Of a DNA stretch of 64,000 bases, positions 43,196 to 61,615 are shown one piece after another. A program made the position numbers and the translations under genes. Under the pieces are notes generated by a model that was not told where the DNA came from, made no database searches, and was given only the letters and a program-made list of their open reading frames with translations. Numbering within the stretch: the stretch's first letter is position 1; the number at the start of each line of letters is the position of its first letter. The stretch comes from Chitinivibrio alkaliphilus ACht1 (GTDB taxonomy: Bacteria; Fibrobacterota; Chitinivibrionia; Chitinivibrionales; Chitinivibrionaceae), in the NCBI RefSeq assembly GCF_000474745.1, contig NZ_ASJR01000004.1:55988-119987 (forward strand), in the 5' to 3' direction.

Positions 43196-43630
43196 ATGCA
43201 ATTTACGACACATTCTGCGCAGGAGACTCGTCTAATTGGAGAACGCTTAGCTTCTTTGCTTTCTCCCGGTGCAGTAGTTGCTCTTGAGGGCGATTTAGGA
43301 AGTGGTAAGACCGAGTTGGTTCGTGGCTATATGAGTCGTGTCTTTCCGGGAGAGATCGTTCATAGCCCAAGCTTTTCTATTGTTAATACCTATGGCTCAG
43401 GGGAACAGTATGTGCATCATTTTGATTTTTATCGGCTTCATTCCCCAGATGAACTATTCGAAATTGGGTTTTCAGAATATCTTGAGAGTACTGCCGTTGT
43501 GTTTATTGAATGGGCCGACATGTTTCCCCACGTTATTCCTCCCCATGCAGAGCATATACATATGCGAACGGCTGGAGAAGAGTCTGGTCGGATTATTGAA
43601 ACAACCCTGTCTCAACTCTGTCCAAAATAG
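43196..43630 (+). CDS. tsaE: tRNA t6A biosynthesis ATPase TsaE
   Basis: P-loop 'GDLGSGKT'; 144 aa; 'HFDFYRL' motif. Confidence 0.8.
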   Translation: MQFTTHSAQETRLIGERLASLLSPGAVVALEGDLGSGKTELVRGYMSRVFPGEIVHSPSFSIVNTYGSGEQYVHHFDFYRLHSPDELFEIGFSEYLESTAVVFIEWADMFPHVIPPHAEHIHMRTAGEESGRIIETTLSQLCPK

Positions 43631-44583
43631 TTGCTGCTGATTGCCTCTTCTATGGCCTTTTTCGCTTCTGCGTACAAACTGTCTATACGTTGTGACTCCG
43701 CTTTGATACGATCGCTGTTATGCTCCTTTGCAGCATCCTCCATGAAGGCACTGCAGAGATTGAGCTTTTCCACTCCGAGGTTTGATGTTGCTCCTTTCAT
43801 TGTGTGGGTGTGATGACGCAGGGCATCCCAATCTTCTGTATTCACAAGGTCGTGGAGTTTTTCTAGATCACGAGGAAAACGTTGGAGAAATGCCGTAAGT
43901 ATTTTAAGAGCAACGTCTTTTTCGTAATACCCGTGTAAAAACGCTTCCTTGTTAAAGATGAGGGTGGTTTCGGGAATTGGAATCTCGCTGCTCGTATGGG
44001 TAAGGATATTCTCAATTTTTTCCTGTAACACATTCATATCTATCGGTTTTGTAATGTAATCATTCATACCAGCTTCTATGGCTTTTTCTTTGATATCTGA
44101 AAGAGCGTGGGCAGACATGGCAATAATGGGCGTCTGTTTATTTTTGTCAACATAGTTTCGAATGTACTTTGTTGTTTCAAAGCCATCCATCTCAGGCATT
44201 TGTATATCCATAAGTATCACATCATATACCGTTTCTTCGGTCAGTTTTATCACCTCTTTCCCATCCTGTGCTAAATCTGTTTTAACTCCCATTTCTCCAA
44301 GTAATGCTAGGCTTACTTCTTGGTTGATCTCATTATCTTCCACAAGAAGAATGGTTGTGTTTTTCAGTGTTGTTTGTGTTTCTTTTTCTGTTGTTTTGGG
44401 CGTTGAGTCTGTAGAAAAAACAGAAAGGAGCTCTTGTCCCATCTCCGTAATAGGAGCGTCTTTGTGGATACTGTGGGTGTATTCTGAGTGCACAGGGGGA
44501 GCCACTTTCTCGGGTAAGGAGAATTCGTTTGCAACACGAAAAGTCATCGATAGTAGATATTGTTTTTGCAAATTGTGCGGCAC
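43612..44583 (-). CDS. Receiver (REC) plus HPt phosphotransfer protein. The N-terminus is uncertain, and it may be the frameshifted C-terminal part of the upstream hybrid kinase.
   Basis: REC 'ILLVEDNEINQ...DVILMDIQMPEMDGF...TKP'; HPt 'RHHTHTMKGATSNLG'. The track ORF starts at a GTG right after a TGA. Confidence 0.65.
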   Translation of the reverse strand: MPHNLQKQYLLSMTFRVANEFSLPEKVAPPVHSEYTHSIHKDAPITEMGQELLSVFSTDSTPKTTEKETQTTLKNTTILLVEDNEINQEVSLALLGEMGVKTDLAQDGKEVIKLTEETVYDVILMDIQMPEMDGFETTKYIRNYVDKNKQTPIIAMSAHALSDIKEKAIEAGMNDYITKPIDMNVLQEKIENILTHTSSEIPIPETTLIFNKEAFLHGYYEKDVALKILTAFLQRFPRDLEKLHDLVNTEDWDALRHHTHTMKGATSNLGVEKLNLCSAFMEDAAKEHNSDRIKAESQRIDSLYAEAKKAIEEAISSNYFGQS

Positions 44584-47473
44584 TCATCCCTTTCAAGTCA
44601 TCAGAGACAACAACTCCTTCGTATGCGATCTCTTTTGTATAGAGATGATTAATTGCTTCTGGGGCACTCTCACATCGATCGGCTGTGAGGCGCATATCCT
44701 TGATTTTGTTCCACACATACTCTTCATGAGTGGGGATAATAAAGAGTAATGTTCGTTCCCGCAGGGGAGAAAGGGTTATGTCTTTTGGTTGCTGAAGAGG
44801 GAGGCGTATCCAAAAAATAGCTCCACGGGGAGAGTTGTCACGAACACCAATTTCTCCTCCCATAAGGGTTGTTAATTCTTTTGAGATTGCTAAACCCAGG
44901 CCTGTTCCACCATATTTTCGGGTTGTCGATGTGTCCGCCTGGGAGAATTTATCAAAGAGTACTTCTTTCTTTTCATCCCGTACTCCAATGCCGGAATCTT
45001 CCACAGCAATATGTAGGGGAGTATCTTTTGCTGTGGTGACCCGAATAAAAACCCCTCCTTGGTGGGTAAATTTTATCGCATTTGATACAAGGTTTGTTAT
45101 CACTTGCCGAAGGCGGATTGGGTCACCACGGAAAAACTCCGGTACATCTGAGGCTATGTCATATTTTAGGGAAAGCCCCTTCTCTTCAGCTTTAAAGGAG
45201 AGACTGAGCATCGTTTCCGAAAGTAGCTTATGAATACTGAAGTCGATTGACTCTAAATCAAGACGTTTTGCTTCTATTTTAGAAATATCAAGAATATCAT
45301 TGACTAAGCTGAGAAGAATTTGGCCACTACTACTAATACTCTCTGCAAATTTTTCTTGTTTGTCATCTAAGTTTGTCGAGAGAAGAAGTTTTATAAGACC
45401 AAGAATACCGTTAAGTGGGGTTCGTATTTCGTGAGACATGTTTGCAATGAAGTCACTTTTCGCTGAATTGGCAAGTTTTGCCTTTTTTGCAAGTCTTTGA
45501 GCAATATCTTTTTGTTTGGTAAGGGCAAGGGTATACTCCTCGGCCTTCTTTCTCATACGCTCTTCATCTTCGGCAATACTTAAGGCATTTCGACTTGTTT
45601 CGTCAATGGATTCGACAAGAGTATAGATAGCATGCTCAAGGGTGGTACTTTCTTGCGCAAGACTTTCTTTGAGAGAAAGTAGTTGTGAGAAGAGAGAGGA
45701 ACATTCAGAAGAGGCGTCTCGTGGATAATTTTCCTCTAAATGTGCGACCAGTTCGAAAAGAGTATCCTTTGCTTCATGGAATTGTCGTATCTGGTTTGAA
45801 ATATCAATACGAGAGGTTTTCTCGGCAACTTTATTTTGCGTTTCCTGTATATCGATATCAGTGAAAAAGCCCTTTTCCGGATTATATTTTTGTTTTTTAT
45901 TAAGACGGCGAAGCAGGGTGTTTACCTCTTCCTTAAGTTCACGGATTCGGGTTTCACGACCGTTCATAAGGTGATTCATAATTTCCAGTTCGCGGTACTG
46001 TCTTTGCAGTTTCTTTTCTGCCAGCACTTTCTCGGTAATGTTTTCTTTAATAGCAATGTAGTTTGTAATTGCGCCTTGAGAATTTTTTATAGGAGAAATA
46101 GTTGCAACTTCATAGTAAATATCGCCGGATTTGTTTTTATTTTCGAATTCACCATGCCAGGTTCTACCGGATGAAATTGTTTTCCATAGTTCTTCATAGT
46201 AGCTTTCATCCATATGTCCTGATTTTAATATGCGCGGATTTTCCCCAATAGCTTCTTCGGCTGTATAGCCCGTAGAAAGGGTAAAGGCTGGGTTTACATA
46301 CTCAATGATTCCTTCAAGGTCTGTAATAACAACGGTCGATTTTGTTTGTTCTATGGCAATGTTAATTCGTCGATTTTGTTCTTCTGTTTTCTTCTGCTTG
46401 GTTACCTCTATATGGGTACCAAACATGGTTACGGGGGCGCCTGTTTCATCCCACTCCAAAATCTTTCCCTTCCCATGAATCCACACCCAATGTCCTTTTT
46501 TATGATGCATACGAAATTCAATGTCGAGTTCTTCTGATTCTTTTTTAAGGCATTGATTCACGGCGTGCAGTGTTTCGGAAACGTCATCGGGATGGAGGAG
46601 GTTTTTCCATGTATCAAAGCCGGTTTCTCCCAATTCTTCCGAGGTATAGCCGATAATATTGACCCATCCCGTATCGAAATACGTTTCGTTGGTTTTTATA
46701 TTCCATTTCCATGTACCGATGTTGAGAGATTCCGTGATGCGGAAAAAATATTCTCGCTGTGCGTCTGCATAGGCAGATCGATGAATTTGATCTGTAATAT
46801 CTATTATATATGACACGCAGTCTGAAAGAGCTCCCTCTTCATAGGTGAAGAGGGTGTAGTGATCAACCCAGATGTATTCTCCCACATGAGTTTCAAGGCG
46901 GTAGGGGGTATGGTGCAGGGTTTCTGCTTTATGTGATATGGCTTGAGTAATTTCTTTTGTATAGGTGTCTCGATCCTGTGAAGAGATGAGAGATGTATAC
47001 AAAATTCTATTCTGAAGAAAATCTTTGGGGAAATAGCCGAGAATGGATTGGGTATTCTCAGAAACAAAAGACAGGCTATGAGTATCGATGTCCTTCCAAT
47101 GAAACAACATGACAGGACCATTCATAAAGAGGACTCGTTCATACTCAAGTTCTTGTCTCTTTTTGTGTGTGTCAGTTATATCAAGGGCAGAACAGAGAAC
47201 TTGTGAGGCCCCCGCTGATGGTGGGAGATTGGGAATTAAATGCACACAAAAAAAACGCGATTCTCCCTGAGAGTTTTCCATGGATGTCCACGTACACAGG
47301 GCCTCTCCAGAGGAGAGAACCTGTTCAATTTCTTCGTATAAGGGGCTTTCTTCGGTGAACATATTCTCCTGCTCTTCTGCAAGATGGAAAAACTCTTGTG
47401 TTGCCCTGTTTGCATATTGATACGTGCGCTGTATATCGATTGCCCAAAGTAGAACTGTTTTTCCCATACACAC
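44333..47473 (-). CDS. Multi-PAS hybrid sensor histidine kinase (PAS x3-4, HisKA, HATPase_c, degenerate receiver)
   Basis: H-box 'MSHEIRTPLNGILG'; 'LVSNAIKFT', 'DSGIGV', 'GTGLGLAISK'. The C-terminal 'TLLFIIPTHEE...VVVSDDLKGMS' is receiver-like but lacks the acidic pocket. Confidence 0.8.
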   Translation of the reverse strand: MCMGKTVLLWAIDIQRTYQYANRATQEFFHLAEEQENMFTEESPLYEEIEQVLSSGEALCTWTSMENSQGESRFFCVHLIPNLPPSAGASQVLCSALDITDTHKKRQELEYERVLFMNGPVMLFHWKDIDTHSLSFVSENTQSILGYFPKDFLQNRILYTSLISSQDRDTYTKEITQAISHKAETLHHTPYRLETHVGEYIWVDHYTLFTYEEGALSDCVSYIIDITDQIHRSAYADAQREYFFRITESLNIGTWKWNIKTNETYFDTGWVNIIGYTSEELGETGFDTWKNLLHPDDVSETLHAVNQCLKKESEELDIEFRMHHKKGHWVWIHGKGKILEWDETGAPVTMFGTHIEVTKQKKTEEQNRRINIAIEQTKSTVVITDLEGIIEYVNPAFTLSTGYTAEEAIGENPRILKSGHMDESYYEELWKTISSGRTWHGEFENKNKSGDIYYEVATISPIKNSQGAITNYIAIKENITEKVLAEKKLQRQYRELEIMNHLMNGRETRIRELKEEVNTLLRRLNKKQKYNPEKGFFTDIDIQETQNKVAEKTSRIDISNQIRQFHEAKDTLFELVAHLEENYPRDASSECSSLFSQLLSLKESLAQESTTLEHAIYTLVESIDETSRNALSIAEDEERMRKKAEEYTLALTKQKDIAQRLAKKAKLANSAKSDFIANMSHEIRTPLNGILGLIKLLLSTNLDDKQEKFAESISSSGQILLSLVNDILDISKIEAKRLDLESIDFSIHKLLSETMLSLSFKAEEKGLSLKYDIASDVPEFFRGDPIRLRQVITNLVSNAIKFTHQGGVFIRVTTAKDTPLHIAVEDSGIGVRDEKKEVLFDKFSQADTSTTRKYGGTGLGLAISKELTTLMGGEIGVRDNSPRGAIFWIRLPLQQPKDITLSPLRERTLLFIIPTHEEYVWNKIKDMRLTADRCESAPEAINHLYTKEIAYEGVVVSDDLKGMSAAQFAKTISTIDDFSCCKRILLTRESGSPCALRIHPQYPQRRSYYGDGTRAPFCFFYRLNAQNNRKRNTNNTEKHNHSSCGR

Positions 47474-47550
47474 TCCGGAGGTATTTTATGTGTAATTACA
47501 CTTGATATGTAAGTGTAGCATCCTCCGGAGGTATGCGCAATTCTTTTTTC

Positions 47551-50136
47551 TTATTTTCGCACTTCGTAGGAGAGAGTGTCCGTATTATTTCGGGTTACTA
47601 CTACGGTTTGAGTAGCATCCAATTCGCCTGATATGAGCAATTTAGAAATATCTGTTTCTACACGACGCTGGATAAGACGTTTGAGAGGCCGTGCTCCAAA
47701 ATGGGGGTCATATCCTGTTTGTGCTAAGTATGTCAGGGCAGAGTCATCTATTTCTATTTGAATATCTTGTGCAGCAAGCCGTTTTCGTAGTCGCTCTATC
47801 TGTAGACGAGTAATTTCACGTATATGCTCCGTGGAGAGGCCGTGAAAAAGAATTGTCTCATCAATACGATTAAGAAATTCCGGCTTAAAATGGTTATGGA
47901 GTAACCCTTCTATGGTTGTTCGTAGGGAGTCCATGTGTGCTGTTCCCTGTTCAAGAATCTTGTCTGAACCAAGGTTGGAGGTCATAATGATAATGGTATT
48001 TTTAAAATTTACCACTCGACCCTTTGAATCCGTGACATGCCCTTCATCCAGTATTTGTAGAAGAATATTGAATACATCAGGATGCGCCTTCTCGATTTCA
48101 TCAAGCAGAACTACCGCGTAGGGTTTACGGCGTATCGATTCGGTTAGTTTTCCCCCTTCATCATACCCAACATATCCCGGAGGTGCTCCAATTAGTTTTG
48201 ACACAGAGTGTTTTTCCATACACTCAGACATATCAATTCGCACCATGGCTCGTTCATCATCAAAGAGATTTTCTGCCAAGGTGCGGGCGAGCTCTGTTTT
48301 CCCCACTCCCGTAGGTCCGAGGAAAAGGAATGAGCCAATAGGTTTGTTGGGGTCATTTAAACCAGCTCGGGCACGAAGGATTGCATCAGAAACGTGATGT
48401 ACGGCATCGTTTTGACCCACAACTCGTTCATGCAGTCTGTCTTCCAAATGAAGCAGTTTTTCCCGTTCGCCCTGCACGAGTTTTTCAACAGGAATTCGAG
48501 TCCATTTGCTTACCACTGTGGCAATATCCTCTTCAGTAATTTCTTCTGAGAGAAGTTTGTTTTCCTCATTATTTCGTGAATGCTCTTCGGCCCGTTGAAG
48601 AGCTTCTTCGGTTTGTGGGATACGGCCGTGTTTCAGCTCTGCAGCACGGGTGAGATCGTATTCCCGTTCTGCCCGGGCAAGTTCTGATTTATATTGATCT
48701 AAGAGGGCCCGAAGCTCACGTTGTCGTGAGACGGTTTGCTTTTCTCGCTCCCACCGTGTAAGGAGAGTATTTCGTTTTTCTTCAATATCTGCGAGGCGCT
48801 CACGGAGTTCCCGTAATTTCTCAGAATTTTGAAATTCATCATCTTCCTGCAGCCCGCGTATCTCTATTTCAAGTTGGAGTTTTTTTCGTGTTAATTCATC
48901 TATCTCAATAGGAGAGGAGTCGATCTCCGTACGGCGTAATGCCGCAGCCTCATCCATGAGGTCAATGGCTTTATCCGGAAGAAATCGAGCGGTAATATAG
49001 CGATCGGAAAGGGTCGCCGCGGCAATGAGAGTGTCATCACGAATCTTAACCCCATGGTGCACTTCATAGCGATCACGAAGCCCCCGGAGTATGGATACAG
49101 TATCTTCCACCGTAGGTTGTTCAACCATTACTGTCTGGAATCGTCGCTCCAGAGCGGCATCTTTCTCAATATGCTTTTGGTATTCGTCAAGAGTTGTGGC
49201 TCCAATACAGTGAAGCTCTCCCCGCGCCAACATCGGTTTTAAGAGGTTACCAGCATCCATGGAACCCTCTGTCTTTCCAGCCCCGACAACGGTGTGGAGC
49301 TCATCGATAAAAAGGATGATAGAACCGGCGTCCTTTACTTCTCGAAGAACCTCTTTTAAACGTTCTTCAAATTCTCCACGATATTTGGCTCCGGCAATGA
49401 GTGCTCCCATGTCAAGAGAGACGAGACGTTTCTCTTTTAAGCTTTCCGGTACATCTCCCTCTATGATACGCCGGGCAAGTCCTTCTGCAATAGCTGTTTT
49501 TCCTACGCCGGGTTCACCAATTAACACAGGATTATTTTTGGTTCGCCGTGAAAGAATTTGGATTACCCGACGAATTTCTTCATCGCGACCAATGACTGGA
49601 TCAAGGTTTCCTTCACGGGCACGATTGGTAAGATCTTGACCAAATTTTTCCAGAGCATTCATGGTATCTTCAGGAGTATCCGTGGTTATTTTTTTGTCTT
49701 TGCGTAACTCCTTTACAGCAGCCTCTACTGCTTCTGCGGTTATACCGTGGGAGGTAAGTATCTGTTTCATGGGGGGACTTTTATGGAGAATTCCCAAAAA
49801 CAGATGATCCGTAGATACGTAGGCATCTTGGCTTTTTCGAGCTCTTTTTTCAGCATCAGCAAGCACCAGGGTGGATTCTCGTGACAGGTATGGGCTTTGT
49901 GCACCGGTTCCACTTACAGAGGGGAGTTTGGCAAGTTCGCGATCAAGGGCCTTTTGTAACATGTCCCGATCTTTCCCCATGGTGGTTAATAACTCTGGTA
50001 TAAATCCCTCTTCTTGAGAAATAAGGGCATGGAGAATGTGGACAGGGGCTATTTCGCTGTTGTTTCGTTCAAGGGCAGTAAGTTGTCCTTCCTGTATTGC
50101 TTCTTGGGCTTTCTTGGTAAATGTTTCAAAATTCAT
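47551..50136 (-). CDS. clpB: Chaperone ClpB (AAA+ disaggregase)
   Basis: Two Walker A sites 'GEPGVGKT', 'GPTGVGKT'; long M-domain coiled coil; 861 aa. Confidence 0.9.
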
Positions 50137-50242
50137 GGGAAACTCCTTTGTATTTTGAATACGATTCTTTTCATGTGGTCTAAAACAAAAAGTGTGCCAA
50201 TCCGTATGTAAGACAATTTCGATCGCTTTTGCAACAATTTGT

Positions 50243-50271
50243 TTGAAATTTTAACAGAAATCGCCTATGAT
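50243..50271 (+). promoter_or_regulatory. Putative sigma-70-type promoter upstream of the GH8 genes
   Basis: TTGAAA, 17 nt spacer, TATGAT, about 170 nt upstream of the GH8 start. Confidence 0.35.
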
Positions 50272-50440
50272 GTGGCAAAAGGAGTGGTAAAACTTCGCTT
50301 TTTTTTAAAATTGGAATCTCCTGTCCATGGGGTATTAAATGAGCAAAAATGTCAAAAGATAAATATGAAATATGAACAGTTTTGTATATACTATACAGTA
50401 AGCAGTAATAGGATATACCACCGTGACAAGTGAGTTGTGT

Positions 50441-51655
50441 ATGGGCCACGTCGTTTTCTTCCTTCTATGGATTCTTTGTGCAGGTTGTATTGGTGCTGAT
50501 ACTGTGCCTCACCGCCCTTTTCCACAGGAGGAACGGTGGGGGCATGCGATTCGTCCCAGCCAGTACTCTCAAGAAGAGTTGAATAACCACGTGGTTGATC
50601 TGTATGAGTACTACCGTGATACGTATTTGCGCCCGTCTCAAAGAACTGAAGGAGGGTATTATATCCACTCAGGTGGAACAAATGTTAATTTTTCTACCAC
50701 GGCAACCGTTTCGGAAGCTCATGGATATGGTATGATACTTTTTGCTCTTATGGCTGGGCATGATGTGGAGGCAAAAGAGTATTTTGATGGTATGGTTGCT
50801 TTCTTTCTGGATCATCCCAGTGGTGCCAATCCTTATAATATGTCATGGGAAATTGAGGGGCAAGAACGTCGACGCCCCAGAAATTCTGCTACCGATGGAG
50901 ATTTAGATATTGCCTATGCCCTTATTTTGGCGCACAATCAATGGGGTTCCACGGGGCGGTATGACTATCGTCAAAAGGCATACGACATGATTATTCATGG
51001 GATTTTGGTGGATAATATGTCTCAGCGTACAAAACGAACCCTTCTGGGTGACTGGGATAGGGATCACTATACCTCTCGTACATCCGACTGGATGCCTGCT
51101 CATTTTCGCGCATTTGCAGATGTTACGGGGGATGACTTTTTTCTTGAGGCTATTGATACTGTGTACGCCTTGATAGAAAGTGTACAGAGTGAATTCTCTC
51201 CTCACACCGGCCTTCTTCCCGACTTTATTACGGGGCGGTTCCCCGAACCGGATCCCCGTGGTGGTGGAACCTATGAGAATAATTCTGAGAAGTATGATTG
51301 GAATGCGTGTCGAGTTCCATGGCGGATTGCCACGGAGTATCTACACCATGAATCTCCTGCGGCGCGAGAGTTTTGTAGTACCGTTATAGAGTGGCTTATT
51401 GCCCACACTGAGGGGGATCCCCGTCGTATTACGGCAGGCTATACCCTTTCGGGTGAAGAGTTAGTAGATTACTCTTCTGTAGCATTTCAGGCGCCTTTTG
51501 CCCTTGCGGCAACGGTTGATGAGCGATTCCAAGACTATCTTGATGCATCGTGGGATATCCTGCGTAAAGATCGTGGTAATGGTGTGTATGTAACAGCGAT
51601 TAATTTATTTTCCATGCTTTTAATTTCGGGTAATTGGTGGGCCCCTCAAGGATAG
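50441..51655 (+). CDS. Secreted glycoside hydrolase family 8, catalytic domain only. The start is either ATG 50441 or GTG 50423.
   Basis: Signal 'MGHVVFFLLWILCAGCIG'; GH8 signature 'ATDGDLDIAYALILAHNQW'. Confidence 0.8.
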   Translation: MGHVVFFLLWILCAGCIGADTVPHRPFPQEERWGHAIRPSQYSQEELNNHVVDLYEYYRDTYLRPSQRTEGGYYIHSGGTNVNFSTTATVSEAHGYGMILFALMAGHDVEAKEYFDGMVAFFLDHPSGANPYNMSWEIEGQERRRPRNSATDGDLDIAYALILAHNQWGSTGRYDYRQKAYDMIIHGILVDNMSQRTKRTLLGDWDRDHYTSRTSDWMPAHFRAFADVTGDDFFLEAIDTVYALIESVQSEFSPHTGLLPDFITGRFPEPDPRGGGTYENNSEKYDWNACRVPWRIATEYLHHESPAAREFCSTVIEWLIAHTEGDPRRITAGYTLSGEELVDYSSVAFQAPFALAATVDERFQDYLDASWDILRKDRGNGVYVTAINLFSMLLISGNWWAPQG

Positions 51656-51683
51656 TTAGGTACTGTAACCAGATGGAGTTGAT

Positions 51684-53887
51684 ATGCCGTGTATAAAACT
51701 GTTATTCTGTCTTTTTGTTCTCAGTGTTCAGCTGTGGGCAGGGCCACAAAGACCGTTTCCGCAAGAGGTTTCCCCTGAGCATGCAATTCAGCCTGATAGA
51801 TATACCCAGGAAGAGATGAACGAAGATGTTATTGCTGTCTATGAGCATTACAAAACCTTTTTGCGTGAGTCTTTGCGTACCCCCGGGGGATATTACATGC
51901 TTGCTGGCGGAACAAACATTGGCTTTGATACCACGGCAACAGTTTCCGAGGCTCACGGGTACGGTATGATTGTTTTTGCTCTTATGGCAGGATATGACGA
52001 GGGAGCTAAGGAATATTTTGATGGAATGTATCAATTTTATCGAGACAATCCAAGCTATGTTAATTCCTATAATATGGCATGGGAAATTGAGGGGTTGGAG
52101 CGTGAACGTGGTGAGCGTTCCTCAGCCACCGATGGGGATATGGACATTGCCTATGCTCTTCTTCTTGCGCATCGTCAGTGGGGTTCAGATGGGGAAATAG
52201 ACTATTTGCAGGCGGCACAAAATCTTATTACCCGGGGGTTAAAAGAAGACTGCATGTCTCCTTATACGGCTCGTATTATGCTGGGAGATTGGGATCAATG
52301 GAGTGATAATTATCACTATACCACACGGAGTTCAGACTGGATGACTGCTCATCTTCGGACCTATTACTGGGCAACGGAAGATGCGTTTTGGCTTGAAGCG
52401 GTAGACACCGTGTACAGTATTATGGATGCCATCACCCAAAACTATTCTCCCCAGACGGGGTTGATGCCTGATTTTGTTGCCGGCAGAGATCCCTATCCCG
52501 ACCCTGATGGAGGAGGTACTGGTGAACCAAACTCACATAAATATGACTGGAATGCATGCCGTGTTCCTTGGCGTATCGGTATGGATTATGTTCATTTTGA
52601 AAGCCCGGAGGCACGAGAAGCAGCAAAAAATATGATGACATGGGTCATGGAAAAGACCGGAGGAGATCCTGCTGAGATAGTGGGAGGCTATCATCTTGAT
52701 GGTACGCCAATTGAGGGGCGGGCACCAACGATTGCCTTTCAAGCACCCTTTGCAGTAACAGCCATGATTGATGAAGAATATCAGGACTTTTTAAACAAAA
52801 GCTGGGCCCTAATGCGAGAAGGGAAAGAGACAAGCGTATATCGAACAGCACTCAACCTTCTATCTATGCTTGTGGTATCGGGTAACTGGTGGAACCCTGT
52901 GGAGGAAAGACCGGGGCAGAGGGAGTTTCGACTAAATGTGCATAATGGCACCGGTGGTGGTGTCTACGAAGTGGGGGATACGGTGACTATCCATGCGGAC
53001 GATCCTCCTGCCGGTACGGAGTTTTTAAGTGGGGTGGGGATGTTTCTTTTCTTCCAACGTCAACAGAAAAGACAATCGTCTTTACTATGCCACGTCAAGA
53101 TCTTTTCTTTACTGCATTTTATAGAGATCCCTCTGCAGAAAAAGATACGACGGGACTTTCCCCGTGTCTTATAGAACATATTTCCTGGGAGGTCGATGCC
53201 GATCTTCTTGGTTCGGAGGTTCGTTATACTACGAATGATGAGTTCCTTGAAATTTCACTTTCTCTTCTTGAGGATGGCTATAGTAGTTACTCATGGATAA
53301 AAGCGGTAGGCCGTGCAGAGGGGGCATATGATGCGGTTGATTATATTGCTGTTTCCTACTCTGCAGACAGAGATTTCAATCTTGTCCTTGACCAAAGACA
53401 ATTAACTGATAGAGGAGCCTCTCATTTTTACCAGCTTCCTGCAACGGACACCGTAACAACCCTCTTTATTCCTGTTGGAGATTTTGTCCAGCCAGACTGG
53501 ACACCTTCGTATTTACAACGAGATACCCCCCGTATGGAAGATGTCTATGCCCTTTCATTTCAAGGAAGAGAGAAAGGGAGTACCACGGATATCTCCTTGT
53601 ATAGCCTCCGACTAAATTATTTTGCTCCCTATACAACAGAGACGATTTCTTCGTCTGTAGAGTCATCTTCTTACGGTATACGACATGCTCCGGGGCGAAT
53701 ACTCTTTCCACGGGAAATTTCCCATGGATTGTTTACTCTGTATACAACACAGGGGCGTCGGGTTCATGAAGAGCAACTATTTCAAGGAAATACGGAGCTG
53801 CGGATTGATTTTCTACGCAGAGGTACGTACATCGGTGTTCTGGAGACATCTGATGGAAGAATTGTACATACTTTCAGCGTAAAATAG
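51684..53887 (+). CDS. GH8 paralog with Listeria-Bacteroides-type B-repeat, CBM-like module and C-terminal sorting-type beta domain. It carries an apparent 1-nt frameshift in the T5 run at 53022-53026; as-sequenced ORFs are 51684-53174 and 53087-53887.
   Basis: GH8 signature 'ATDGDMDIAYALLLAHRQW'. Read across the frameshift: 'GGGVYEVGDTVTIHADDPPAGTEF|KWGGDVSFLPTSTEKTIVFTMPRQDLFFTAFY'. Tail 'GLFTLYTTQGRRVHEE...GTYIGVLETSDGRIVHTFSVK'. Confidence 0.65.
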
Positions 53888-54001
53888 TGGCAATTATGTC
53901 AGAAATGTATTAAATTACTACGGAGATGAAACAGAACAGGAACTACTCCTGGGTTGGTTTTCATAGAGGATATTACGGTGTTTTACAAAAAGAGGTTGTG
54001 T

Positions 54002-56314
54002 ATGAAGGTTACAAAACGTACTATGGTATCTGCTCTTATGTGTATCACCCTTGCGGTGATGACATTTGGACACGATTATCAAAAAGCTTTAAATATGTCT
54101 GTCCGTTTTTTTGGTGCCCAGCGATGCGGTAGTGACGTACATTCATGGATTGGACATGAGTCATGTCACTGGCACGATTATAGCATTGATGGGGTTGATT
54201 TGGGTGGTGGCTGGCATGATTGCGGAGACCATATTAAATTTGGTCTTACCGGTGGCTATTCAGCAGCATTGCTTCTGCACGCCTATTTAAATTTTCCAGA
54301 TGCCTTTGAAGATAATTACTCCTACGAAAATTCAGCCGGTAGTCCCAATGGTATCCCCGATGTGTTAGTTGAGGTTAAACATTACACGGACTACGCGTTA
54401 AAGATGCTTCAAGGCGACACTTTTTACTACCAGGTGGGAGATATGCAGAGCGATCACCACCAGTCCTGTTCTCGCCCCGATTATCAAACAAACAATGAGA
54501 CCGGAGGCTCCCGTCGGTATTATTCTGTAGATGGAGGGGGGGCTTCCAACGTTGCGGGTACCCATGCTGCTGTGCTTGCCATGATGTCACGGGCATATCG
54601 TGAATTTGACGAAGAGTATGCGGACTTATGCCTGGAAACGGCCAAAAAGATGTTTGCCTTTGGTGATGCAAAACATGAAGCCTTAGGTACAATGGATGGT
54701 CAAGAAGAAAACAGTCCCTATGAAGATGATACCTTTGCTGACGACATGGCCTTCGGTGCTATTGAGCTGTATAATGCAACGGAAGAGCAAGACTACTTAC
54801 TGGCAACTCGTTCCTTTGTAGAAAATGGTGGAGGTCTTCCCACGTACTATGTTTTAAATTATAACCGTGTAAATCCTCTTGCTGTGTATAGTTTTGCGCA
54901 AGTCCTTTCGTCTCAAGGAACTGGTCTGAGACGTGAAGTAGATAATTATCTTGATAAAATGACAGATCTTGGTTTTGCTTTCTGGAATGGATGGGGTAGT
55001 TTAAAGTATACTGCGGCCGGCTCGTATGTTGCCTTATTAGCCTATGATCTTTTTCCTGATAGCACGCATTACCGTGATTTTGCAGAGGCAAACATCGACT
55101 TTATTCTTGGAGATCATGGCGGTTCTGCTGGTAATTTCAGTGCGGGATATAGTTTCCTTTCTGGATATGGGGATGATTACCCCATGGATTTAATCCACCA
55201 CAAGGCTGCTTTTGGTGGGGCACCATGTGCCTTTGGTTCCGGATGGGGCCAGTTTGGCAGTGATGCTGCAAATGAGTATCGTCTTGAGGGAGCTCTTGTT
55301 GGTGGTCCCACCGATGAAGGAGGGACGTATTGGGAACAACGTGGCGGAGATGGCGGGTATTACACAAGTGAAGTGTGTATTTACTATAATGCTCCCTTTG
55401 TAGCTGCTTTGGCGGCATTCCTGCATGAAGGTGATGATGACGGTGATGACGGCGATGATGACGGCGATGATGATGGCGATGATGATGGCGATGATGATGG
55501 CGATGATGATGGCGATGATGATGGCGATGATGATGGCGATGATGTAAATCTTTCAGGGTATCTTGGATGGTATGTATATCACGATGATTTTGGATCATCC
55601 ATAGATACATCAGGTGGTCTCCTCCAAGATGATAGCTTGGTAGAGATAACGTTTGATATGGTTGAAGAAAATGCAGATGATGAAATTTGGCCGTATGGTG
55701 GGTTAGCTACAGCTCTTTCTACTTCCTTAGCAATGCCAGAGTATATCACTTTTAGCTATTCTGCAACCAACGATTTCAACGTTGTCCTCCCCATGGATGC
55801 GGTATCACAAGCTGGAGGTGATTATCGAGCATCTCTTCCTGCTACAGGTGGATCATGGGAGACTGTTACCTTGTCCTTAAATGCGAACACCTTTTCTCAG
55901 CCGGGGTGGGCAGATAACGTAGACTTTGATAAGTCTACGGTTGAGTCCTTTGAAATTACTCCCGATTTTGATGGAGCCACCGGAGAAATTGCAATTCGTG
56001 GAGTCTATATTGACGGTTTCTCTCCTGACCAGGTGCCCCTTATTGGTAGTGGCCGTTCTGTCTCTTCAGGCACGGGAATATCCTTACTATCTGTAACAGA
56101 ACAGTCTTTGGGGATTTCTGTGCCTGATGCTGGCATGTATACAATTAGAGCATTTACTCCTGATGGTCGTAAGGTTGGACAAATCGTAAATCGTATGGAA
56201 GCGGGTGAAAACCGTGTCGGTTGGTTCGGTCAGAATACCTTTGCCAGCAATGTAATATTGTTGCAGGTACAAGGTCAGGGGTATTCTCAAGTGTTGCGAG
56301 TTAATATGCGTTAA
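54002..56314 (+). CDS. Secreted GH9 endoglucanase with poly(DDDG) linker, CBM-like module and C-terminal sorting-type beta domain
   Basis: SD 'AAGAGG'; signal 'MKVTKRTMVSALMCITLAVMTF'; GH9 motif 'DLGGGWHDCGDHIKFG'; tail 'GMYTIRAFTPDGRKVGQIV...VILLQVQGQGYSQVLRVN'. Confidence 0.8.
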   Translation: MKVTKRTMVSALMCITLAVMTFGHDYQKALNMSVRFFGAQRCGSDVHSWIGHESCHWHDYSIDGVDLGGGWHDCGDHIKFGLTGGYSAALLLHAYLNFPDAFEDNYSYENSAGSPNGIPDVLVEVKHYTDYALKMLQGDTFYYQVGDMQSDHHQSCSRPDYQTNNETGGSRRYYSVDGGGASNVAGTHAAVLAMMSRAYREFDEEYADLCLETAKKMFAFGDAKHEALGTMDGQEENSPYEDDTFADDMAFGAIELYNATEEQDYLLATRSFVENGGGLPTYYVLNYNRVNPLAVYSFAQVLSSQGTGLRREVDNYLDKMTDLGFAFWNGWGSLKYTAAGSYVALLAYDLFPDSTHYRDFAEANIDFILGDHGGSAGNFSAGYSFLSGYGDDYPMDLIHHKAAFGGAPCAFGSGWGQFGSDAANEYRLEGALVGGPTDEGGTYWEQRGGDGGYYTSEVCIYYNAPFVAALAAFLHEGDDDGDDGDDDGDDDGDDDGDDDGDDDGDDDGDDDGDDVNLSGYLGWYVYHDDFGSSIDTSGGLLQDDSLVEITFDMVEENADDEIWPYGGLATALSTSLAMPEYITFSYSATNDFNVVLPMDAVSQAGGDYRASLPATGGSWETVTLSLNANTFSQPGWADNVDFDKSTVESFEITPDFDGATGEIAIRGVYIDGFSPDQVPLIGSGRSVSSGTGISLLSVTEQSLGISVPDAGMYTIRAFTPDGRKVGQIVNRMEAGENRVGWFGQNTFASNVILLQVQGQGYSQVLRVNMR
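55430..55544 (+). repeat. Near-perfect 12-bp tandem repeat (GATGATGGCGAT)n, about 9.5 units, encoding (DDDG)n
   Basis: Direct reading of 'gatgatggcgat' iterated; the opposite strand gives an artefactual His/Arg-rich ORF. Confidence 0.9.
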
Positions 56315-56340: not shown

Positions 56341-56375
56341 GAAGCGGAGAAGGGGTTACTTCTCCGCTTCTGTGT
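56341..56375 (+). terminator. Rho-independent terminator after the GH9 gene
   Basis: 'GAAGCGGAGAA-ggggttac-TTCTCCGCTTC' perfect 11-bp stem, then 'tgtgttctc'. Confidence 0.6.
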
Positions 56376-56450
56376 TCTCATAGGATTGAGTAGAGAATAA
56401 TTGTAGCAGGATATATATTAGGGAAGAAAACCACCAAATCAGGAGGAGTT

Positions 56451-59007: not shown

Positions 59008-59044
59008 ACGGGGGGGGCTTTTCTACCGTTTTGAGGCTCCCCCT
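59008..59044. terminator. Possible bidirectional terminator between convergent leuS and the DUF1573 gene
   Basis: 'CGGGGGGGGC-ttttctaccgttttgag-GCTCCCCC' imperfect G/C stem with a large loop. Weak. Confidence 0.25.
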
Positions 59045-59984
59045 ACTCTTTTCCTTCCAAGGTCACTACTGCTCGGGTAATTTCCCCATGAGGTCCGTAA
59101 AACAGAAGTTTTCCTCCCGCATATCCTTCTACGCTACTGTAAAACGAAATTGGTACGGTGTGCCGTTCAAGTTCAGATGGATAGCGTTGTTTTAGTCTAC
59201 GGTGTATTTCTTGAGCCGGTCGAGCTGATGGACCGAGTAAGTTGGCTACATACTCCATGATTGCTTCTCGTTCATCCAGTATGTGCATACATTGTTTTGC
59301 GTAGTCTGAAGCCGGACATACTTCTTTTAAGGCAGTAAGAGGGGGATCTGTTTTAAATCCCGCATCTTTTATAAGACGGGTTTTGGCAGAGATATAATCT
59401 GCAAGGGCTGCTATAACCAGGTCAGGATTAACCTCAGAAGGCTGGTGCGTGAATTCTACGGGGATCTTAATATCTTCCTCTGTTGATGTGCCTCGAAGAA
59501 AATAGATGTGAGTGAGGGGAAAGATACTTTTTTCTGTGAGTACATACAAAGTATCTTTAAACTGATTCTTGTGAGCGTCTTCCTCGACAATATGAAGAAA
59601 GCGACTTTCGAGGGTAAGTCCGGAAAAGGCGTGTGCTCGAAGATGAATACGTTGTATACTTTCATTTTGTGCATTACTAAAGAGAGTGACGGAGTGTGCA
59701 TGTTGCCCGCTACCTGCAATGGAGAGATGAATTGTAAGGTGCGTGGAGTCTCCCGGAGCCACAATACTATCATAGGTAACATCGGTGCAGCCACAGCTCA
59801 TGCGGACACGTGATATCTTGAGGGTATCTTGGCCGGTGTTCTGTACAATAAAGGTGTGTACGGTATCGATGGGGGTGCCTTCATAGGGCAAAATGCCGAA
59901 GTCATGCTCTGTTGTATCAAGCTCTAATAGAGCAGCATGTGTTGGGTACAGCACAACAAAAAAGATACAAAGAAGGAATTTCAT
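59043..59984 (-). CDS. Secreted DUF1573-family protein
   Basis: Signal 'MKFLLCIFFVVLYPTHA'; 'HDFGILPYEGTP...FIVQNTGQDTLKISRVRMSCGCT' matches the DUF1573 core. Confidence 0.55.
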   Translation of the reverse strand: MKFLLCIFFVVLYPTHAALLELDTTEHDFGILPYEGTPIDTVHTFIVQNTGQDTLKISRVRMSCGCTDVTYDSIVAPGDSTHLTIHLSIAGSGQHAHSVTLFSNAQNESIQRIHLRAHAFSGLTLESRFLHIVEEDAHKNQFKDTLYVLTEKSIFPLTHIYFLRGTSTEEDIKIPVEFTHQPSEVNPDLVIAALADYISAKTRLIKDAGFKTDPPLTALKEVCPASDYAKQCMHILDEREAIMEYVANLLGPSARPAQEIHRRLKQRYPSELERHTVPISFYSSVEGYAGGKLLFYGPHGEITRAVVTLEGKE

Positions 59985-60025
59985 GGGAGCATCCCTTGAA
60001 AGAATAGTACGTTTTACAAAATATA

Positions 60026-61615
60026 TCAATTCCGCCGGCGATCAAGGGTACGATATTGTATTGCCTCAGAAACGTGTTGGGAGGATATGGTCGGACTACC
60101 TGCAAGATCTGCTATGGTTCTGGACACCTTAATGATGCGATCGTAGGCTCGTGCAGAAAGTCCGAGTTTCTCCATGGCTTTTTTGAGGAGCAAACTTGAC
60201 GATTCATCCATATCACAATGGGTACGCATATGCTGTGGCTCCATAGATGCATTGCTATGAATGGAGGTCTTAGCAAATCGCTCTCCTTGAATTTTTTTTG
60301 CATGCTCTACATGCTGTTGCATCTGTTGTGACGTACTGGTTCCCTTCTTTTGTTTTAGTTCTTCGTAAGGAAGGGCTGGTACTTCAATATGAATATCTAT
60401 ACGATCGAGGAGGGGACCCGATATCTTTGAAATGTAGCGGGCGATGGACGTTGGGGTACAGGTACATCGCTGGGAGGTGTCTCCGTAATATCCGCACGGG
60501 CAGGGGTTCATTGCAGCAATGAGCATGAAGTTTGAAGGGTAAGTAAGGGTAAGGCTTGAACGGGATATGGTTACTTGTTGATCTTCTAAGGGTTGTCGCA
60601 GGTTTTCCAAAACATTTTTGTTAAACTCTGGCAACTCATCAAGAAATAGTACCCCGTTATGGCTTAGGCTAATTTCGCCTGGACGCGGGTAGGAACCTCC
60701 TCCGGTCAATCCAGCATACGAGATTGTGTGGTGGGGTGAGCGAAATGGTCGGGTTGTTAAGATGGGACGTTGTGGGTCAAGTTTTTGTGCAACAGAGTGT
60801 ATCTTGGTAGTTTCCAAAGATTCATCGAGGGTGAGGGGCGGAAGGATGGAGGGGATACGTCGTGCTATCATGGTTTTTCCGGAACCGGGAGGTCCAATCA
60901 TCAGGATATTATGATTCCCCGCTGCGGCTACAGTTATGGCACGCTTCACATGTTCTTGCCCTTTTACATCGATAAAATCTTTTTCTCCACGCTCTCTTTG
61001 AGAAAAATATTCTCCTATTCGACAGCGACAGGGTGGAATGTTTTGGGTTCCTTCAATGAACTGAACACATTCAAGAAGATTTGCGAGAGGTACAACATCA
61101 ATTCCCTCAGCTACAGAGGCCTCTTCGGCATTTTCCCGGCCAAGAAGAATACGAGAGAACCCCTGTTCTCGAGTGCCAAGACTAATAGGTAGGCACCCCG
61201 TAATTTTTTTTATCGACCCATCAAGGGAGAGTTCTCCAATAACAACAGTATTGCTCATATCGGTATGTGGGTGTACCTGTCCTGAGGCAATAAGTATCCC
61301 TACGGCTATGGGGAGATCGTACGCAGAGCCTTCTTTGCGAATATCTGCCGGTGCCATGTTTATGGTTACTTTTCTCGCGGGGAATTCAAACCCACAATTT
61401 TTAATAGCAGACATTACCCGCTCTCTACTTTCCCGAACCGCTCCATCGGGAAGGCCTACGATGGTGAAGCTTGGAAGGGCTTCCGTAATATCTGTTTCAA
61501 TTTTAATTGTGAAAGCATCAAGGCCGAGAAGGGCCATACTGTAAACGTGTGATAGCATTGCAGTTCTCCCGTGTTTATTCTCCTGAGGTGTCTGATGACT
61601 CCTGACCGAGTTCAA
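60026..61615 (-). CDS. YifB/ComM-family Mg-chelatase-like AAA+ ATPase
   Basis: Lon-like N-domain; Walker A 'GPPGSGKT'; 'VLFLDELPEF'; C-terminal 'RAYDRIIKVSRTIADLAG'. Confidence 0.8.
   Translation of the reverse strand: MNSVRSHQTPQENKHGRTAMLSHVYSMALLGLDAFTIKIETDITEALPSFTIVGLPDGAVRESRERVMSAIKNCGFEFPARKVTINMAPADIRKEGSAYDLPIAVGILIASGQVHPHTDMSNTVVIGELSLDGSIKKITGCLPISLGTREQGFSRILLGRENAEEASVAEGIDVVPLANLLECVQFIEGTQNIPPCRCRIGEYFSQRERGEKDFIDVKGQEHVKRAITVAAAGNHNILMIGPPGSGKTMIARRIPSILPPLTLDESLETTKIHSVAQKLDPQRPILTTRPFRSPHHTISYAGLTGGGSYPRPGEISLSHNGVLFLDELPEFNKNVLENLRQPLEDQQVTISRSSLTLTYPSNFMLIAAMNPCPCGYYGDTSQRCTCTPTSIARYISKISGPLLDRIDIHIEVPALPYEELKQKKGTSTSQQMQQHVEHAKKIQGERFAKTSIHSNASMEPQHMRTHCDMDESSSLLLKKAMEKLGLSARAYDRIIKVSRTIADLAGSPTISSQHVSEAIQYRTLDRRRN

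Follow-up and report, generated by a model that had tools for sequence, protein, structure and literature searches.

The nearest described precedent for this locus is given by the surface glycanases of Fibrobacter succinogenes, which follow a layout of catalytic domain, CBM and basic terminal domain (BTD), as in FSU_2914 (GH5-CBM11-BTD/TIGR04183) and FSU_2303 Cel8B (GH8, type II BTD). The basic C-terminal domain of about 80 aa, which is found there and here alike, is now read as a signal for type IX secretion (T9SS; PMC6851124, PMC3079729). The window, that is the whole 64,000-nt stretch of DNA that was analysed, belongs to Chitinivibrio alkaliphilus by 100 % protein match, and another gene within it is possibly split. 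The cluster enzymes have the phylum, a signal peptide, a GH catalytic domain and a beta-sandwich module in common with the F. succinogenes glycanases. Unlike in F. succinogenes, the module here has no match to the CBM11/CIA30 sequence model, the second GH8 enzyme (GH8b) has an extra InlB-B-repeat-like domain, and the host eats chitin where the comparison host eats cellulose. The layout of these enzymes is already known in Fibrobacterota. Our main reading, held at a probability of about 0.65, is that the cluster is chromosomal and vertically inherited and encodes three Sec-exported inverting beta-1,4-glycanases, with a module-tail cassette on GH9 and formerly on GH8b.

The enzymes and their transcription signals

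An earlier sequence-only reading had proposed three same-strand exported enzymes in the order GH8, GH8 and GH9, and this is borne out by Pfam and by a check of the ORFs (Table 1); the motifs it quoted, the ORF limits, the two module strings and the two tail strings are all found in the sequence. The signature ATDGDLDIAYAL lies within ORF 50423-51655 (GH8a), ATDGDMDIAYAL within ORF 51684-53174 (GH8b) and the motif GGWHDCGDHIKFG within ORF 53954-56314 (GH9). Both GH8 domains exceed the Pfam cut-off of 24 bits, and GH9 scores 277 bits against a cut-off of 27.7 bits with the model covered end to end. Lysine is very low in the cluster proteins (1.2-2.1 % vs 5.1 % background) and their pI is 4.1-5.0, and so they are taken to be exported. 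GH8a is indeed a bare catalytic domain lacking the C-terminal cassette, and although its mechanical ORF begins at GTG 50423 the likely start is ATG 50441, matching a 404-aa NCBI protein (P0008). It is 71 % identical to a 417-aa GH8 of the related genome L001, and 55 % identical to GH8b. For GH9 the likely start is ATG 54002, as judged from an orthologue that begins MKRKK.

Table 1. Features of the cluster and its borders (positions in the window)
Feature	Position	Strand	Remarks
clpB	47551-50136	minus	
Intergenic region between divergent clpB and GH8a	50137..50440	.	contains promoter-like hexamers 50243-50271
GH8a: signal peptide, GH8 catalytic domain	50441..51655	+	PF01270 62.4 bits
GH8b first frame: signal peptide, GH8 catalytic domain, first half of Flg_new_2	51684..53026	+	Pfam GH8 72.3 bits
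Flg_new_2 (divergent InlB B-repeat) of GH8b	52941..53122	+	PF18998; spans frameshift
Frameshift site TTTTTAA (T5A2 run)	53022..53028	+	one nucleotide fewer than orthologues
GH8b second frame: remainder of Flg_new_2, module, tail, stop	53027..53887	+	mechanical ORF 53087-53887
GH8b CBM11/CIA30-like module	53159-53626	+	module HMM 131.9 bits
GH8b basic T9SS-type tail	53660-53884	+	tail HMM 45.5 bits
GH9 enzyme, signal peptide at N-terminus	54002..56314	+	mechanical ORF begins TTG 53954
GH9 catalytic domain	about 54077-55411	+	
12-nt tandem repeat, 9.4 copies, acidic (DDDG)n linker of GH9 enzyme	55432..55544	+	TRF score 198, 96 % matches
GH9 CBM11/CIA30-like module	55541-56032	+	
GH9 T9SS-type tail	56072-56311	+	
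Intrinsic terminator 3' of GH9 gene	56341..56380	+	12-bp stem 56341-56370, 7 GC pairs, T-rich tail

The flanking signals fare unequally. A promoter claimed upstream of GH8a is present as a site (10/12 matches) but carries no evidence value, its frequency being that of shuffled sequence (12 sites found vs 13.4 +/- 3.6 expected), and an Rfam search of the clpB-GH8a intergenic region matched no family. The strong terminator claimed at 56341-56375 stands, given its stem and a folding energy of -23.7 kcal/mol (z = -4.33) that 0/200 shuffles reach. The genes are presumably co-transcribed; the gap from GH8b to GH9 has a hairpin (53937-53951) that may divide the cluster into two transcripts.

Inheritance of the cluster and the broken frame of GH8b

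Housekeeping genes adjoin the cluster, and the two available related Fibrobacterota genomes have the gene orders GH8-GH8-GH8-GH9-leuS (L001) and clpB-GH8-GH9 (L004), with 60-71 % identity between the cluster genes and their L001 counterparts. The GC content, GC3 and synonymous codon usage of the cluster lie within the range of 36 other window ORFs. The suggestion that the cluster might be a horizontally acquired island is therefore rejected, its composition resembling that of the flanks and its clpB- or leuS-adjacent position being the same in both relatives, and it retains next to no credibility. What spoke for it is a tetranucleotide correlation with the rest of the window of 0.81, vs 0.934 +/- 0.013 for equal-sized pieces, but it reflects a shortage of AAAA, GAAA and AGAA that arises because the cluster proteins are very lysine-poor, acidic and exported; moreover no mobility genes, repeats or tRNA were found at the cluster borders. 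The synteny in L001 and L004 rules acquisition out.

GH8b had been presented as a single gene with module and tail, and the domains are there, but not in one reading frame, the two parts having been silently joined across 53026/53027. Read through, the first frame ends at 53174 and yields a 496-aa product, its last 49 aa out of frame, that is 100 % identical to an NCBI protein of that length (P0001). The frame change is -1, and at this site the orthologues read TTT AAA AAG TGG (L001) and TTC AAA AAA TGG (L004). The orthologues are single proteins of 730-739 aa, a length that one added base restores to GH8b; only after such repair is Flg_new_2 detected (26.8 bits vs a cut-off of 23.6), a domain also found in the orthologues P0002 and P0003. 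The same break occurs in a second assembly, a Logan contig of run SRR29904084 that terminates within the GH9 (DDDG)n repeat, though the break could be an artefact common to both assemblies.

How the break is to be understood bears on what GH8b now is. That it is a homopolymer sequencing or assembly artefact, the true gene encoding, as the orthologues do, an unbroken GH8-Flg_new_2-module-tail enzyme of 734 aa, is a tentative alternative deserving some weight: exactly one base is concerned, inside the T5A2 run, the 287 codons downstream are stop-free with all invariant residues of the module preserved, the genome was published as a draft in 99 contigs (PMC4704652, Table 1), and the second, possibly split window gene would fit the same pattern. 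Against this, the contig from the separate SRA run is 100.000 % identical to the window over 9,809 nt, T5 run included. The recurrence of the frameshift in two assemblies would suit a cluster in decay, a remnant of Fibrobacterota cellulolytic heritage in which GH8b has already become a pseudogene while GH8a and GH9 are dispensable, as would the inability of C. alkaliphilus to grow on cellulose, xylan and chitosan-type polymers (PMC4704652; PMC4814513 for the sister genus) and its complement of only about 20 GH genes (PMC4814513). Decay is nevertheless rather improbable, with GH8a and GH9 intact in their catalytic motifs, the catalytic domain of truncated GH8b complete, the cluster and its order retained in two relatives at 52-71 % identity, and endoglucanase and chitosanase activities expressed by chitin-grown Chitinispirillum (PMC4814513). 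Very improbable is a -1 ribosomal slippage at G UUU UUA that would bridge the frames and give a short periplasmic and a long surface enzyme from one gene. UUU UUA is a slippery codon pair at which a -1 slip gives the exact orthologous length, and the 83 nt downstream fold at -21.7 kcal/mol (z = -2.5, matched by 2/200 shuffles); but the heptamer begins with G and not U, the predicted structure begins about 1 nt past the site, the three available orthologues have an unbroken frame and no such site, and a T5 run does not reach the length needed for transcriptional slippage.

Under the main reading, that of a vertically inherited and functional cluster, GH8b would have carried a GH9-like module-tail cassette before losing one base in the T/A run, and as written would give a 496-aa enzyme lacking module and tail; this product would probably be active but confined to the periplasm. 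GH8a, having no cassette, would likewise remain periplasmic and could act on imported oligomers.

The shared module and the basic tails

The homology of a C-terminal module in GH8b and GH9 is upheld (25 % identity over 236 aa of shared region, E = 9e-10), but not its supposed size of about 100 aa, the shared region being about 165 aa plus tail. The module recurs in other carbohydrate-active enzymes and also in proteases: it is present in 335 representative proteins at E <= 1e-3, joined to S8, M12, C25 and C39-like peptidases, CE4, GH18, GH5, GH8 and GH9 enzymes and lipase, with several 740-760-aa GH8 homologues of GH8b among its carriers. In about two thirds of full-length copies it ends 78-100 aa from the C-terminus. 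By fold, its top matches are without exception type-B CBMs (CBM11, CBM30, CBM29, CBM86, CBM8 and CBM4), whereas by sequence the module matches nothing in the PDB and no CBM, and the window copies do not match PF08547 even at E <= 10. It is an uncatalogued module of binding type beside a secretion tag, and would bind carbohydrate.

Since the module is also joined to proteases and esterases, it may do something other than bind carbohydrate. It may be a secretion or anchoring adaptor travelling with the T9SS tail, be it a spacer, a stalk or an element recognised by the attachment machinery, rather than a CBM; the nearly fixed module-tail spacing, the chemically unrelated partner enzymes and the missing CBM match at sequence level all lean that way. 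The fold matches point to a CBM instead, a genuine CBM, either CBM6 or CBM11, routinely sits immediately ahead of the basic terminal domain in Fibrobacter enzymes (PMC3079729, PMC6851124), and a CBM could also serve proteases that target a chitin-protein matrix, so that the adaptor role seems a minority possibility.

The tails were taken for T9SS sorting-type domains, and this holds for the family profile and the fold but not for the curated scores of the window tails themselves. Both fail the curated models, GH8b reaching 17.9 bits with TIGR04183 (cut-off 23) and GH9 giving no match, whereas 23/34 family tails match TIGR04183. The tail-family profile matches the sorting domains of NucA, RgpB, RemA and FspA (3.5e-7 to 1e-3), among them the proven T9SS domains of NucA (3.5e-7) and RgpB (7e-5), and the predicted tail fold agrees with T9SS sorting domains, which supports a type A assignment at the level of profile and modelled fold. 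The tail pI of 9.7-10.0 (9.96 for GH8b) fits the basic terminal domain of Fibrobacter, reinterpreted as a T9SS signal (PMC6851124). In the GH9 cassette the CBM11/CIA30-like beta-sandwich is followed directly by a basic sorting domain of type A that would hand the enzyme to the type IX secretion system; this would move it over the outer membrane, cut the tail off and deposit the enzyme at the cell surface or close to it, with the CBM-like module as the membrane-nearest domain.

Likely substrates and structural relatives

Within their family the GH8 domains fall in the chitosanase/licheninase branch, and the GH9 domain is of endoglucanase type, and therefore the most likely substrates, as far as homology can tell, are deacetylated chitin stretches (chitosan) and/or beta-glucans accompanying natural chitin. 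GH8 and GH9 relatives also cleave cellulose, lichenan and xylan. A Chitinispirillum homologue is annotated as chitosanase/endoglucanase, and extracts of that organism grown on chitin show CMCase and chitosanase activity (PMC4814513). C. alkaliphilus, a chitin specialist of soda lake habitat, grows on chitin only (PMC4814513, PMC4704652), and the role of the cluster would be accessory deconstruction of polymers that are not themselves growth substrates.

Among known systems, the module is only 12-15 % identical to CBM11 of C. thermocellum Lic26A-Cel5E (1v0a) and to the CIA30 fold (NDUFAF1, 7zkq), from which it differs in having conserved motifs that are peculiar to it, W-x4-D-x2-GS along with F-x-QP-x-W, and an almost obligatory T9SS-tail partner. 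With the type A T9SS domains (RgpB 5hfs; RemA, NucA, FspA and RemZ with SprA, 8gl6, 8glk, 8glj and 8gl8; mirolase 8qb1) the tails share a C-terminal seven-strand Ig-like sandwich, G-R/K-x-V/L, G-x-Y-I/L-V and a terminal basic residue, but they are divergent, with the N-terminal PNP-type motif replaced and the window copies under curated cut-offs, and their host is of Fibrobacterota and not Bacteroidota. Among solved structures the two GH8s are closest to chitosanases, GH8a to ChoK of Bacillus sp. K17 (1v5c) and 7cju (E about 3e-78, vs 5e-25 for the cellulase CelA), aligning over about 380 aa with the acid motif SE.(2)GYGM, the ATDGD.DIA signature and 'NA.RVP', in which Asn replaces the CelA-type Asp. 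In the ChoK branch the proton acceptor is placed differently (Adachi 2004, cited after PMC5407803), and the loop glutamate proposed as base aligns one residue out of register; the Bacillus chitosanases are free secreted Gram-positive proteins that have neither module nor T9SS tail. The GH9 domain has its closest solved structures in Cel9M of Clostridium cellulolyticum (1ia6, 1.1e-46) and the animal-type GH9 endoglucanases (1ks8, 7e-36), which it resembles in having DxxD and the catalytic Glu and in lacking an N-terminal Ig domain and CBM3c, but their conserved HHR is HHK here (HHS or HHA in relatives), and the C-terminal extension consists of the acidic repeat, the CBM11-like module and the T9SS tail in place of a dockerin.

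The GH8-GH8-GH9 cluster and its genomic setting

The three same-strand genes lying between clpB and leuS encode two GH8 enzymes and one GH9, as the sequence-only reading had it; Pfam supports all three families, and every string quoted in that reading was found at its position. PF01270 (GH8) gives 62.4 bits with GH8a, the first gene, and 72.3 bits with GH8b, the second, against a cut-off of 24, and PF00759 (GH9) gives 277 bits with the third, covering model positions 1-444 of 444. PROSITE gives the GH8 signature as A-[ST]-D-[AG]-D-x2-[IM]-A, and the Glu of S-E-x2-GYGM serves as catalytic acid. The window carries the signature as ATDGDLDIAYAL and ATDGDMDIAYAL, and the VSEAHGYGM common to GH8a and GH8b aligns the acid Glu to the 'tsEgqGYGM' of chitosanase 7cju. 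The two GH8 catalytic domains share 55 % identity. The …LCAGC… stretch of GH8a, weighed as a possible lipoprotein signal, does not match the usual lipobox.

In the GH9, whose nearest relatives are Cel9M and animal-type endoglucanases, HDCGDH (the DxxD motif) and TSEVCIYYNAP (with the catalytic Glu) align to the Cel9M motifs. The H-H-R substrate-binding motif ('phHRa' in Cel9M) is absent from the three cluster GH9s compared, being HHK in the window and HHS and HHA in two related Fibrobacterota MAGs, L001 and L004. It is a variant of this clade, compatible with GH9 membership, and perhaps signals changed contacts with the substrate.

Positions of the cluster genes, associated features and counterparts in related genomes
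Feature	Sequence	Position	Strand	Remark
Receiver + HPt ORF	window	43612-44583	minus	
Sensor kinase ORF (PAS, HisKA, HATPase)	window	44333-47473	minus	1044-aa product
Logan contig match	window	45684-55492		SRA run SRR29904084
GH8a	window	50441-51655	plus	ORF 50423-51655
GH8b catalytic frame	window	51684-53174	plus	496-aa product
GH8b junction, TTTTTAA	window	53022-53028	plus	
Fold after junction	window	53028-53110	plus	83 nt
GH8b module + tail	window	53087-53887	plus	mechanical ORF, frame from 53027; 266-aa product
Weak hairpin	window	53937-53951		
GH9	window	54002-56314	plus	ORF 53954-56314; HHK in 'LIHHKAAFGG'
(DDDG)n linker repeat	window	55432-55544	plus	12-nt unit, 9.4 copies
DUF1573 / HYDIN-like Ig-domain gene	window	59043-60029	minus	
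Third GH8	L001	1291-2769		492 aa
GH9 counterpart	L001	5182-7449		HHS
GH9 counterpart	L004	5140-7662		HHA

That the cluster might be an acquired island does not hold up, its GC and codon usage being within the background, its position the same in two relatives and its flanks housekeeping genes. The window order clpB-GH8a-GH8b-GH9-leuS places it where L001 has GH8(417)-GH8(492, tail only)-GH8(739)-GH9(755)-leuS and L004 has clpB(minus strand)-GH8(730)-GH9(840), lengths in amino acids. GH8a pairs with the 417-aa protein of L001 (71 % identity), the GH8b catalytic domain with the 739-aa protein (65 %) and the GH9 with the 755-aa protein (60 %). By the matching order and these pairings the core pair, a GH8 and a GH9 each with a C-terminal cassette of module and tail, is ancestral, and the extra GH8 copies are tandem duplicates from which parts of the cassette have been lost. 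The third GH8 of L001 has a tail of type IX secretion (T9SS) type directly after the catalytic domain, without the module or Flg_new_2 (PF18998, the divergent InlB B-repeat domain), and so three export formats, bare, tail only and full cassette, occur within the one L001 cluster.

The comparison with the flanks which the sequence-only reading had proposed gives no sign of foreign origin: GC (0.44-0.48), GC3 and synonymous codon usage are all inside the spread of the 36 other window ORFs. The tetranucleotide correlation of the cluster with the rest of the window is lower (0.81 versus 0.934 +/- 0.013), with AAAA, GAAA and AGAA the deviating words, but as island evidence this was ruled out since it traces to amino-acid composition. 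The cluster proteins contain 1.2-2.1 % Lys versus 5.1 % in the other window ORFs and have a pI of 4.1-5.0, only the T9SS tails being basic (~10), and it is this lysine-poor acidic composition that accounts for the odd profile. Such a composition is expected of proteins exposed to alkaline brine. No mobility genes or tRNA were found at the cluster borders, the flanks being clpB, leuS and housekeeping genes, and the wider neighbourhood holds PFOR, PPIase, two-component proteins, a ComM-like gene, corC and ybeY besides. Closest to the cluster lie the genes for ClpB, a sensor kinase, LeuS and a DUF1573 protein; a SusC/SusD pair of the Bacteroidota-type polysaccharide utilization locus is absent beside the enzymes, likewise in L001 and L004. 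The DUF1573 / HYDIN-like gene comes directly after leuS, outside the cluster, and its product has a hydrophobic N-terminus.

Of the transcription signals proposed earlier, the terminator after the GH9 gene is convincing (12-bp stem, −23.7 kcal/mol, z = −4.3), and the promoter-like site does exist, although such sites are no commoner here than in shuffled sequence. A search of the region against Rfam gives no riboswitch or leader. A weak hairpin followed by GGTTGGTTTT separates the stop codon of GH8b from the start of GH9; it might attenuate read-through, and the genes may therefore be transcribed in more than one unit.

The broken frame of the second GH8 gene

The module and tail attributed earlier to the second GH8 are indeed present, but in a frame that differs from that of the catalytic domain, a break which the sequence-only reading missed. 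The product of the catalytic frame is 100 % identical to the NCBI protein 'glycosyl hydrolase family 8 [Chitinivibrio alkaliphilus]', which identifies that species as the source of the window. If the two frames are joined at TTTTTAA, the result is a 733-aa protein in which the Pfam domain Flg_new_2 straddles the junction (26.8 bits, cut-off 23.6). In each of the three closest homologues (739, 730 and 737 aa) a single ORF holds these domains in the same order, with identities of 55, 46 and 42 % and 99-100 % of the query covered. Orthologues read PAG-YVFKK-W (TTT AAA AAG TGG) or PAG-WSFKK-W (TTC AAA AAA TGG) at the junction, and the window, with TTT TTA AG TGG, has one base fewer.

A contig assembled from a different SRA run (the Logan contig) is 100.000 % identical to the window along their match, frameshift site included, and so the break is reproducible between two assemblies. 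From these sequences the break is probably a true mutation in the strain (a probability of about 0.65). An artefact would have to be common to both assemblies, which is possible if rather unlikely. That ribosomal slippage bridges the two frames seems very improbable: the site does read G UUU UUA, and the 83 nt after the junction form a structure of modest stability, at −21.7 kcal/mol (z = −2.5, equalled by 2 of 200 shuffles), but no such site occurs in the three available orthologues, and the fold, though the sole feature favouring slippage, is probably coincidence.

As written, then, the GH8b product keeps its whole catalytic domain but lacks module and tail. The 266-aa product of the downstream ORF has no exact match in a word-indexed protein search and may be absent from deposited proteins. 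The NCBI annotation of a 496-aa protein conceals the loss of the module and of the secretion tail, and with these the predicted site of action changes.

Two other sites in the region deserve mention. The hybrid sensor kinase gene (43612-47473) looks split: the kinase ORF has a Cys/Arg/Asn-rich end, seemingly out of frame, and is overlapped by 250 nt by the receiver + HPt ORF, with the Logan contig giving an identical kinase product. A second frameshift would explain this, as would a separate REC-HPt gene with its start at an internal ATG. In the GH9 gene the (DDDG)n linker is encoded by a tandem repeat, its place being taken in L001 by a short poly-Asp and in L004 by an insert of ~95 aa and of no recognised type. 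The Logan contig, from short reads, ends inside this repeat, which leaves room for a variable or mis-assembled number of copies.

A shared module coupled to a sorting-type tail

A homologous module of ~100 aa had been proposed for the second GH8 and the GH9. The homology stands (25 % identity across 236 aa of the two C-terminal regions, E = 9e-10), but the module extends to ~165 aa, with the tail coming after a short linker. In the GH9 it takes up residues ~530-695 of the 786-aa ORF product, and its conserved features are a W, a D-x2-GS motif and an F-x-QP-x-W motif. It has no model in Pfam or NCBIfam. An exhaustive search with a five-copy profile against 1.84 billion representative proteins, each standing for a cluster of proteins at least 50 % identical, matched 335 proteins at E <= 1e-3, of which 151 reach E <= 1e-10, whereas a word-indexed protein search with nearly the same alignment returned no match, which seems to reflect a limit of candidate selection. 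Among 168 copies near full length, 16 lie at a truncated protein end, and ~115 of the remainder end 78-100 residues ahead of the C-terminus, directly before a tail of matching length. Partner domains, tallied for 69 of the best-scoring proteins, are Flg_new_2 (36), Por_Secre_tail (14), polysaccharide deacetylase (8), subtilase, GH18 and C39-like peptidase (5 each), M12 peptidase (4), GH8 (3), GH9 and GH5 (2 each), plus others. Occurrence in other CAZymes, the point on which the sequence-only reading had staked its proposal, is therefore borne out, GH18, GH5 and polysaccharide deacetylase proteins carrying the module as well as GH8 and GH9. The five module proteins whose source is named all belong to Chitinispirillum alkaliphilum or to Fibrobacterota MAGs.

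An AlphaFold model of the GH9 module and tail (34-sequence alignment, mean pLDDT 89) predicts a CBM11 beta-jelly-roll for the module. By sequence, a PDB search with the module profile gives no match, and PF08547 (CIA30) has no match to either window module at E <= 10, matching only two or three members of the family (best E 7e-8 and 9.5e-5). A fold match without a sequence match points to a divergent CBM11/CIA30 relative by structure alone, coupled to the tail. A bolder and distinctly tentative proposal, on balance doubtful, is that the module is an unclassified CBM family, related to CBM11 in structure only, T9SS-tail-linked and spread across the whole extracellular arsenal of Chitinivibrio/Chitinispirillum-type Fibrobacterota. 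That arsenal would comprise glycanases, chitin deacetylases, GH18 chitinases and proteases, and such a family would supply the substrate binding that C. alkaliphilus is missing, its chitinases being reported without known chitin-binding domains and its chitin degradation to occur only with intact cells (PMC4814513). The module is a candidate for a new CBM family in alkaline, saline chitin or chitosan processing, and the module-tail cassette, with its 335 representative clusters outside Pfam and NCBIfam, may serve as a marker of surface-exposed hydrolases.

As for the tails, their likeness to T9SS sorting domains is carried by the family rather than by the window copies, which fall below the curated HMMs: with TIGR04183 and PF18962, GH8b reaches 17.9 bits (TIGR04183, cut-off 23, E 0.0022) and GH9 has no match. 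Among 34 family tails, 23 match TIGR04183 and 13 match PF18962. A tail profile of 32 sequences, the window tails being rows 1 and 2, matches the sorting domains of NucA (3.5e-7), RgpB (7e-5), RemA (1.2e-4), FspA (1e-3) and RemZ (2.6e-3), all with a T9SS role experimentally established. The tail is modelled as an Ig-like seven-strand sandwich at the extreme C-terminus, with a signal peptide at the N-terminus. Among the ORFs scanned within the 64-kb window there are no T9SS components (SprA/Sov, PorV, PorU, GldKLMN). The window tails are basic (pI 9.7 and 10.0), in agreement with the 'basic terminal domain' (BTD) of Fibrobacter glycanases, since reinterpreted as a T9SS signal (PMC6851124).

Substrate, role and precedents

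Against solved structures GH8a matches the chitosanases 7cju and 1v5c (ChoK) and the glucanase 5xd0 at E 3e-78 to 3e-74, and the cellulase CelA at 5e-25; the BcsZ model gives the window GH8s only 22-28 bits. The 'dwNAcRVP' (WNACRVP) of the window aligns to the chitosanase 'yyNAsRVP', in a column whose Asn we take to be at the position of CelA Asp278. With the acid Glu, the signature and this alignment the window GH8s fit the GH8 branch with a relocated proton acceptor, a subfamily concept (Adachi) cited in PMC5407803. A loop Glu in GGGT.E is kept in six of seven cluster-type GH8s, but phmmer places it one residue from the ChoK-type Glu (Glu309).

C. alkaliphilus is a haloalkaliphilic obligate chitin degrader of the Fibrobacterota (PMC4814513, PMC4704652). 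Chitin-grown cells of a sister genus show CMCase and chitosanase activity with no growth on those polymers (PMC4814513), and the 'cellulases' of C. alkaliphilus have been read as tools for polymer deconstruction and not for energy (PMC4704652). The chitin-only growth, the sister-genus activities and that reading together favour an accessory role, in which the surface enzymes are predicted to attack deacetylated chitin and/or associated beta-glucans. Chitosanase-type GH8s would suit an obligate chitin degrader that attacks deacetylated chitin too. GH8a, having no tail, would act in the periplasm, the same logic having been applied to chitinases without a Por domain (PMC4814513). The cluster enzymes are expected to withstand high pH and high salt.

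The cluster itself is of little consequence, its GH8 and GH9 genes being annotated in a published genome. Within the libraries searched, the GH8b frameshift and the module-tail cassette defined as a family of its own appear not to have been recorded before. The layout, in which a catalytic domain is joined to a beta-sandwich module and a basic T9SS tail, is the established one in Fibrobacterota, with precedents in the GH5-CBM11-BTD and CBM6-BTD enzymes and in Cel8B of F. succinogenes (PMC3079729, PMC6851124).
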